Made by a program: the position numbers and the translations under genes. The notes beneath the pieces were generated by a model that saw only the letters and a program-made list of their open reading frames with translations, did no database searches and was not told the origin of the DNA. This document shows, in pieces, positions 6,516 to 7,997 of a DNA stretch of 64,000 nucleotides. The stretch comes from Escherichia coli (GTDB lineage Bacteria; Pseudomonadota; Gammaproteobacteria; Enterobacterales; Enterobacteriaceae). Numbering within the stretch: the stretch's first letter is position 1; each line of letters begins with the position of its first letter. The stretch lies in assembly GCF_029227855.1 (NCBI RefSeq), contig NZ_CP074356.1. One strand, given 5' to 3'.

Positions 6516-7997
6516 ATGGCACAAGTCATTAATACCAACAGCCTCTCGCTGATCACTCAGAACAACATCAACAAAAACCAGTCTGCGCTGTCGACTTCTA
6601 TCGAGCGCCTTTCTTCTGGTCTGCGTATTAACAGCGCTAAAGATGACGCTGCGGGCCAGGCGATTGCTAACCGCTTCACTTCTAACATCAAAGGTCTGAC
6701 TCAGGCCGCACGTAACGCCAACGACGGTATTTCTCTGGCGCAGACCACTGAAGGCGCGCTGTCTGAGATTAACAACAACTTGCAGCGTGTGCGTGAGTTG
6801 ACTGTACAGGCGACGACCGGGACTAACTCTGATTCTGACCTGTCTTCTATCCAGGATGAAATCAAATCCCGTTTAAGCGAAATTGACCGTGTATCTGGTC
6901 AGACTCAGTTTAACGGCGTGAACGTACTGGCTAAGAATGACACCCTGTCTATTCAGGTAGGTGCAAATGACGGTCAGACTATCAATATTGACCTGCAGCA
7001 AATCGATTCTCATACACTGGGTCTGGATGGTTTCAGCGTTAAAAATAATGATGCAGTGAAAACCAGTGCTGCCGTGAATACTCTTGGGGGGGGGGCAGGT
7101 TCTGTTGCTGTCGACTTCGCAACAACCAGTTTGACTGCTATCACTGGTCTCGGTAGCGGTGCTATCAGCGAAATTGCTAAAGACGATAATGGTGATTACT
7201 ACGCGCATGTCACAGGGACTACGGGTAATACTGCTGATGGTTACTATGCTGTCGATATCGACAAGGCTAACGGTGAGGTCGCTCTGAAAGATGGTAACGT
7301 AGATACACCGACAGGTACGCCAACGACGACAAGCACATATGACTTCACAGACGCTGGTCAAACCGTTTCCTTTGGCACTGATGCTGCAACAGCCGGTATC
7401 AGCACTGGTGCTTCTCTCGTTAAACTTCAGGATGAGAAAGGCAATGATACTGCTACTTATGCAATCAAAGCACAAGATGGCAGCCTGTATGCCGCCAACG
7501 TTGATGAGGCTACCGGTAAAGTCACTGTCAAAACCGCCAGCTATACTGATGCTGACGGCAAAGCAGTGACCGATGCCGCTGTAAAACTGGGTGGTGACAA
7601 TGGCACAACCGAAATTGTTGTCGATGCTGCGTCAGGTAAAACTTACGATGCTGGTGCACTGCAAAACGTTGATCTCTCCAGTGCAACCAACACGGTAACC
7701 GCAATCCCGAACGGTAAAACCACGTCTCCGCTGGCTGCCCTTGACGACGCAATCAGCCAGATCGACAAATTCCGCTCCTCCCTCGGTGCGGTGCAGAACC
7801 GTCTGGATTCCGCGGTCACCAACCTGAACAACACCACTACCAACCTGTCTGAAGCGCAGTCCCGTATTCAGGACGCTGACTATGCGACCGAAGTATCCAA
7901 CATGTCGAAAGCGCAGATCATCCAGCAGGCAGGTAACTCCGTGCTGTCCAAAGCTAACCAGGTACCGCAGCAGGTTCTGTCTCTGCTGCAGGGTTAA
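6516..7997 (+). CDS. fliC: Flagellin FliC (H antigen), non-K-12 allele
   Basis: True start MAQVINTNSLSL inside the 500-aa track ORF; conserved D0/D1 termini, divergent central domain. Confidence 0.9.
   Translation: MAQVINTNSLSLITQNNINKNQSALSTSIERLSSGLRINSAKDDAAGQAIANRFTSNIKGLTQAARNANDGISLAQTTEGALSEINNNLQRVRELTVQATTGTNSDSDLSSIQDEIKSRLSEIDRVSGQTQFNGVNVLAKNDTLSIQVGANDGQTINIDLQQIDSHTLGLDGFSVKNNDAVKTSAAVNTLGGGAGSVAVDFATTSLTAITGLGSGAISEIAKDDNGDYYAHVTGTTGNTADGYYAVDIDKANGEVALKDGNVDTPTGTPTTTSTYDFTDAGQTVSFGTDAATAGISTGASLVKLQDEKGNDTATYAIKAQDGSLYAANVDEATGKVTVKTASYTDADGKAVTDAAVKLGGDNGTTEIVVDAASGKTYDAGALQNVDLSSATNTVTAIPNGKTTSPLAALDDAISQIDKFRSSLGAVQNRLDSAVTNLNNTTTNLSEAQSRIQDADYATEVSNMSKAQIIQQAGNSVLSKANQVPQQVLSLLQG

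Follow-up and report, generated by a model that had tools for sequence, protein, structure and literature searches.

A ten-guanine tract in a rare Escherichia coli flagellin gene is a candidate contingency locus and a probable frameshift hot spot

Introduction

Does an uninterrupted run of ten guanines inside a flagellin gene make that gene a switch, or does it make a gene that breaks easily at one place? This question is raised by a stretch of 64,000 nucleotides (nt) of Escherichia coli DNA (contig NZ_CP074356.1; the whole stretch is called the window hereafter), in which the flagellin gene fliC reads, from position 7083, ctt ggg ggg ggg gca, that is, L190 G191 G192 G193 A194. A preliminary description made from the sequence had placed a run of ten guanines (G10) at 7086-7095, in frame and encoding LGGGA, as both the sequence and the reading of its open reading frame (ORF) bear out, and had proposed that slipped-strand mispairing at the run works as a reversible ON/OFF switch for the H antigen. 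In this report, we compare the tract with its counterparts in other isolates, ask what one-base slips do to the protein, and weigh the competing accounts of why the run is there. The G10 tract proves to be genuine and to be inherited vertically within a rare family of E. coli fliC alleles, and it slips in nature, at least one natural frame-disrupted (OFF) allele being on record. As a contingency locus, it has the standing of a candidate and no more.

Results

The first finding is that the tract is shared by nearly all known genes of its type. In the other E. coli loci with the same type of fliC, an identical G10 is found in 21 of 23 (a count that includes the locus of a National Collection of Type Cultures [NCTC] strain, L004, which is frameshifted beside the tract), G9 in one, and an interrupted run in one. 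The protein cluster at 90% identity comprises 11 sequences, for all of which DNA was obtained, and besides the window 24 loci were compared, 23 from E. coli and one on a Pseudocitrobacter contig (L024), the E. coli loci being drawn from isolate assemblies at NCBI, public short-read runs as assembled by Logan and one ENA metagenome assembly. The 23 E. coli loci represent 10 distinct DNA alleles, the Pseudocitrobacter contig being an eleventh, and G10 is present in nine of these ten, in two sublineages that lie about 50 of 1482 positions (~3.4%) apart. A complete genome and a Logan assembly made independently show the tract in identical form, and the fliC of the window has an uninterrupted frame and the same length as its relatives. 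The family itself is rare: the fliC region is 100% identical to that of E. coli JNEC-KY178 (NZ_AP045174.1; a human clinical isolate from Japan), and among 5426 complete genomes of E. coli the type is confined to two, JNEC-KY178 and, at 96.6% identity, RMDEC465. The nearest named E. coli flagellin type is H48, at 69% protein identity. The NCBI Prokaryotic Genome Annotation Pipeline (PGAP) calls the protein a generic flagellin, its NCBIfam matches are to generic flagellin families, and the serotyping papers searched supplied no name for it. Because PGAP gives no H-type name, the gene may represent a rare or unrecognised H type.

A run of this length is, as the preliminary description had stated, very rare in E. 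coli coding DNA. In the window, G10 is the sole run of G or C of at least 7, the next longest runs being A8 and T8, and in 100 dinucleotide-preserving shuffles the mean number of G10/C10 matches was 0.02, with any match in 2 of 100. In a set of 14 further fliC alleles from E. coli, which differ in length (1050-2013 nt), G runs reach 5 and C runs 4 at most. Across 1346 Escherichia genomes, conserved intragenic homopolymers are mostly 6 and at most 8 nt long, those of at least 10 nt being mostly intergenic (PMC8928963), and in K-12, G.C runs of 8 bp are already termed outliers (PMC8510543). The tract also departs from the codon usage of its own gene, in which the 43 Gly codons are 30 GGT, 8 GGC, no GGA and 5 GGG, three of these five being the consecutive codons that form the run.

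What one-base slips do to the protein was established in silico and is matched by a natural allele. Loss of one G (G9) is predicted to give a product of 205 amino acids (aa) and gain of one G (G11) a product of 213 aa, in agreement with the proposal that either change truncates flagellin shortly downstream. The G9 record, a Logan assembly of run ERR1010191 (L005), is called as 205 aa plus 288 aa, which is exactly the split predicted for loss of one G, and because its nearest alleles, 3-4 substitutions away, all carry G10, it is explained by a recent one-G deletion. A second split gene is found in the NCTC strain (GCA_900448615.1, L004), in which G10 is kept and an extra T four bases downstream (CAGGTTTCTG; GGTT to GGTTT at L004:2468-2472, after window position 7100) leaves 213 aa plus 288 aa. 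Both frame-breaking indels of the family thus fall within 7086-7100, 15 of 1482 nt, for which uniform placement gives a chance of ~1e-4, the interval having been picked post hoc. Two further loci of the same near-clonal allele group as L004, L022 (GCA_012746475) and L023 (Logan assembly of ERR1010193), keep G10 and carry C7101T six bases downstream, which changes Ser195 to Phe. Their sequence also equals the +T allele minus its next C, a simple transition being more parsimonious, and +T and C7101T cluster 4-6 nt 3' of the tract. Two loci interrupt the run: RMDEC465 (L002) reads GGGGGTGGGG, a synonymous interruption, and the Pseudocitrobacter locus, on a Joint Genome Institute (JGI) metagenome contig, reads GGGGGAGGAG, the LGGGA protein sequence being unchanged in both.

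Further OFF alleles were sought with several markers. The residual 288-aa C-terminal ORF can serve as a census marker, and in the 90% cluster only P0008 and P0011 are C-terminal fragments of this size. Exact look-up found no record of the predicted G9 N-terminal product in the sublineage of the window, and none of the predicted G11 N-terminal product in either sublineage. Other short flagellin fragments in the cluster that this look-up covered are of unrelated flagellin types, truncated at contig ends. A DNA-pattern scan of metagenome contigs for tract lengths 7-13 returned no match, but it missed L024 too and carries little weight. Tract-length polymorphism is one G9 among 23 other E. coli loci, and the census overall set about 59 contigs with the full-length protein against 2 split genes, some of these contigs being one isolate assembled twice. 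Contigs of 33,043 nt, identical or near-identical in size, recur among runs (ERR3142387, ERR1010193 and others; L010 and L023; the P0004 and P0007 alleles). One clone has apparently been sampled repeatedly, and independent isolates are therefore fewer than contigs.

Published measurements allow the slip rate to be extrapolated. According to PMC8510543, which cites Lee et al. 2012, the indel rate of homopolymers rises exponentially with run length, and in repair-defective E. coli 95 indels arose in four 8-bp G.C runs over ~250,000 generations, or ~1e-4 per run per generation (PMC8510543). An A8 reporter shifts frame at a rate of 5.4e-8 in the wild type and 8.1e-6 in mutS, and mismatch repair cuts homopolymer frameshifts in E. 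coli ~119-fold on average (PMC3306285); in Campylobacter jejuni, a tract becomes 10-fold more mutable when it is extended from G8 to G11 (PMC3401435). The GATC sites nearest the fliC tract lie ~535 nt upstream and ~576 nt downstream, so that mismatch repair, with a site within ~580 nt on both sides, can act at the tract. By extrapolation, G10 would slip at ~1e-6 to 1e-5 per generation in repair-proficient cells and ~100-fold more often in mutators, which suggests a rate at or below the usual range of phase variation (typically above 1e-5 per generation). The same rate would be far above the combined knockout rate expected for the rest of the gene.

The origin of the tract can be approached through its relatives outside the species. 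Beyond the E. coli cluster, Pseudocitrobacter has the closest proteins (84-85%), then Buttiauxella, Kluyvera and Enterobacter, and a scan of genome contigs with the variable domain matched only Pseudocitrobacter vendiensis and Kluyvera georgiana. A protein search with the variable domain alone gave no match, which we ascribe to a limitation of that search since the full-length query found relatives. The flanks of L024 match P. vendiensis at 98% (fliA region) and 94% (fliD), as against 84% and 80% for E. coli, whereas its fliC (L024:1022-2503) is 93.5% identical to the window allele over the whole length. This fliC type appears to have moved between Pseudocitrobacter and E. coli, since Pseudocitrobacter-like flanks carry an E. 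coli-like fliC and the nearest outside proteins are from that genus. The E. coli intergenic region between fliC and fliA (window 7998-8316) contains palindromes resembling repetitive extragenic palindromic (REP) elements, such as gcctgatgcgctgcgcttatcaggcctac and gccggataaggcgtttacgccgcatccggc, and none is present in the corresponding part of the Pseudocitrobacter contig (L024:2504-2696); from their absence there, the imported segment seems to be limited to about the fliC gene. At the tract itself, L024 encodes the three glycines as GGG GGA GGA, the P. vendiensis type strain has GTT GGT GGC TCT, and the usual motif of relatives is V-G-G-S/T-A. On these comparisons, the simplest history would be that two silent A-to-G changes converted GGG-GGA-GGA into G10.

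A contingency locus is recognised by a hypermutable repeat of sufficient length inside an ORF or promoter, a frame that shifts with the length of the tract, a product that is a surface or host-interaction determinant, length polymorphism among or within strains, frequent and reversible switching, and maintenance of the tract by selection, the last three, with switching in both directions and abundant polymorphism, being the defining ones. Here, the repeat is an uninterrupted in-frame G10, the frame shifts with its length both in the in silico products and in the natural G9 split gene, and flagellin is such a determinant. Of length polymorphism there is the one G9, and the extrapolated slip rate would be at or below what phase variation usually shows. 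Maintenance by selection finds no support in a comparison of fourfold-degenerate sites, of which 33 of 266 (12%) vary among E. coli alleles gene-wide and 1 of 3 in the tract, a weak test with tiny numbers. The interrupted tracts of RMDEC465 and the Pseudocitrobacter homologue, moreover, encode the same LGGGA. As judged from these patterns, we lean towards the tract not being selectively maintained.

The gene that carries the tract is a FliC/FljB family flagellin by domains, hidden Markov model score and gene context alike: its Pfam domains are Flagellin_N (PF00669), Flagellin_D3 (PF08884), FLIC_barrel (PF21504) and Flagellin_C (PF00700), with conserved terminal domains on either side of a variable centre, it scores 650.8 bits against NCBIfam family NF005953 (FliC/FljB; cutoff 619), and its neighbours in the annotation of NZ_AP045174.1 are fliD, fliS, fliT, fliA and fliZ. 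The tract had been described as lying inside the hypervariable domain; it does lie in the variable region, not deep in its interior but at its very start, conservation across relatives stopping at about residue 186. The coordinates of these features are collected in Table 1, together with a likely promoter identified by eye against the sigma-28 consensus, TAAAGTTT-N11-GCCGATAA. In the NCTC locus, an insertion sequence (IS) transposase pair (HTH and rve domains; L004:3650-4878), absent from the window and the other loci, lies between fliC and fliA. Two control genomes illustrate other routes to motility loss at the locus, CUVET21-H2 having a fliA annotated with an internal stop (L028:3631-4350) and NCTC9112 a frameshifted fliD (L036:328-1735).

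Table 1. Features of the fliC locus, in window coordinates
Feature	Position	Strand	Remarks
Candidate FliA (sigma-28) class-3 promoter of fliC	6413..6439	+	TAAAGGTT, 11-nt spacer, GACGATAA; likely
fliC, flagellin	6516..7997	+	493 aa plus stop, intact; canonical fliD-fliC-fliA context; rare allele family
G10 homopolymer	7086..7095	+	Codons Gly191-Gly192-Gly193 (ggg ggg ggg) and first base of Ala194 (gca); frameshift-prone
Positions directly 3' of the tract	7099..7101	+	Two further independent changes in near-identical alleles, +T and C7101T
Residual C-terminal ORF	7131..7997	+	TTG start, 288 aa; called when the frame breaks at or near the tract
TGA stop after G9	7132..7134	+	Ends 205-aa N-terminal fragment; natural case L005
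TAG stop after +1 base (G11 or NCTC +T)	7154..7156	+	Ends 213-aa fragment; natural +T case L004

Discussion

The account that we regard as probable is that the G10 tract is an incidental hypermutable sequence, a frameshift hot spot that causes frequent and potentially reversible loss of flagellin without being demonstrably a selected switch. The three glycines that the tract encodes would form a loop where the variable domain begins, and the tract most likely arose by synonymous GGA/GGT-to-GGG changes in a GGN-GGN-GGN motif. Slipped-strand mispairing would then remove or add one G, ending flagellin at 205 or 213 aa, just past the N-terminal D1 region, so that the C-terminal D1/D0 segments needed for assembly would be gone. 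Truncation of flagellin after the N-terminal D1 region abolishes filament assembly, and such a cell would be expected to be nonflagellate and H-negative, until a second, compensating slip restored the frame. The preliminary description had gone further, to a reversible ON/OFF switch of the H antigen: slippage in nature stands, in the form of the G9 allele with its 205-aa and 288-aa products, and a reversible switch is not demonstrated. Four observations weigh against the account of an incidental hot spot. The sole G9 record comes from an unpolished short-read (Logan) assembly, and the +T of the NCTC locus, which adjoins the tract instead of lying inside it, could be an error in the consensus of long reads. 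Given how the gene uses its Gly codons, three rare GGG codons in a row are improbable, and G10 has persisted across 3.4% allele divergence; this pair of observations is mildly suggestive of selection for mutability.

That selection is the substance of a rival account, in which the tract is an evolved contingency locus, G10 being kept by second-order selection for reversible flagellin ON/OFF because switching would help to evade anti-flagellin immunity, TLR5 recognition or flagellotropic phage, or would save the cost of flagella. Its appeal is evident, since G10 is retained in nine of ten E. coli alleles in both sublineages and built of three rare GGG codons, the natural OFF allele is broken exactly at the tract, the target is a classic surface antigen, and the phase-variable polyG tracts of C. 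jejuni most often have a length of 9-10 (PMC3401435). We nevertheless consider it unlikely, because the tract differs in length in a single record, as against about 59 records with the full-length protein, no G11 being on record, because the synonymous interruptions in RMDEC465 and the Pseudocitrobacter homologue leave the protein as it was, because the fourfold sites of the tract are no more conserved than the gene average, and because mismatch repair in E. coli suppresses slippage ~100-fold (PMC3306285). Our literature search also brought up no description of a homopolymer switch in the fliC of E. coli, in keeping with the earlier statement that none was known. To its full formulation, a true slipped-strand contingency locus giving reversible and heritable flagellin ON/OFF, created by two silent GGA-to-GGG changes after acquisition from Pseudocitrobacter, we give the same doubtful standing.

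The remaining accounts make less of the tract. It could be effectively silent, G10 being real but stable in repair-proficient E. coli, the G9 record an assembly error, and the consequence too small to measure. Nearly all records do carry an in-frame G10, L005 is an unpolished Logan contig of one run, and mismatch repair is efficient at homopolymer loops (PMC3306285); yet more than 10 other Logan or ENA short-read assemblies read G10, so that there is no systematic bias towards G9, the rise in slippage with run length is exponential and in E. coli even a G.C run of 8 bp is an extreme hot spot (PMC8510543), and another frameshift and a missense mutation are clustered no more than 6 nt away from the tract. 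On balance, we give silence less credence again than an evolved switch. Finally, the true tract might be shorter or interrupted and G10 a miscall, the sequencing or assembly artefact that the preliminary description had named as its main alternative. Homopolymers are a known weakness of long-read assembly and the relative RMDEC465 has an interrupted run, but G10 was read in 21 of 23 other E. coli loci and nine alleles by differing laboratories, platforms and assemblers. Because it recurs in independent assemblies and in both sublineages, and because frame and gene length agree with those of relatives, the artefact is refuted for practical purposes and we see hardly any chance of its being right. 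An incidental frameshift hot spot thus remains the account we prefer, and we class the tract with a kind already known, the homopolymer frameshift hot spot and candidate phase-variable gene.

If switching occurred at a useful rate, the lineage would lose and regain its main motility organelle, which is also a major immune target (TLR5, antibody), by a one-base slip, a route unlike either the DNA inversion of Salmonella or the usual irreversible deletions and IS events of E. coli, and this would be, as far as our literature search showed, the first homopolymer-driven phase variation of the H antigen in Enterobacteriaceae. A more immediate effect is practical, in that H-negative, nonmotile variants and split-gene annotations may be expected for this flagellar type, each kind of split being already on record once. 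The locus also illustrates how two silent substitutions can make an ordinary Gly-Gly-Gly loop a mutational hot spot. Its general importance is limited by how seldom the allele occurs (2 of 5426 complete genomes).

Comparison with known systems places the tract more precisely. The polyG contingency genes of C. jejuni resemble fliC G10 in that a mononucleotide tract of ~8-11 G/C lies in coding DNA and a one-base slip toggles a motility or surface phenotype, and phase variation of flhA through a homopolymeric tract is reportedly known in C. coli from work by Park et al. in 2000. To our knowledge, Campylobacter has no mismatch repair of the MutS/MutL type. Its switching has been measured and is frequent, whereas the fliC tract has one natural length variant in repair-proficient E. 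coli, and its tracts lie in regulators or in export or glycosylation genes, whereas here the tract is in the structural gene for flagellin. In length the two agree, tracts of G9-G10 being typical of Campylobacter (PMC3401435). The Hin inversion of Salmonella (fliC/fljB) and the unilateral phase variation of E. coli, with its flk, fll, flm and fln islands, share with the proposed slippage its outcome, an H antigen that is changed or no longer expressed in members of the Enterobacteriaceae (PMC11868660, PMC5343136). They reach it by site-specific recombination or excision, with a second flagellin gene and a repressor, whereas replication slippage in fliC would give ON/OFF and no exchange of one antigen for another. 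A recombinase-driven switch or a second flagellin was also considered for the window, and tblastn of FliC against its whole length found fliC alone. In sequence class and organism, the nearest counterparts are the 8-bp G.C runs of the E. coli leuP/Q/V/T tRNA genes, hot spots that dominate the spectrum of indels and, in cells lacking mismatch repair, mutate at ~1e-4 per run per generation (PMC8510543). They belong to the structure of the tRNA and are linked to no phenotype switching, whereas the run in fliC exceeds them by two bases and is located in the gene for a dispensable, immunogenic protein. A translational ON/OFF switch affecting a surface antigen, which is what the fliC tract is a candidate for, is found in neuO of E. 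coli K1, where it is driven by heptanucleotide repeats. Unlike fliC, neuO is a prophage gene for an O-acetyltransferase, not for a flagellin, its repeat consists of 7-nt units in place of a homopolymer, and experiments have demonstrated that it switches.
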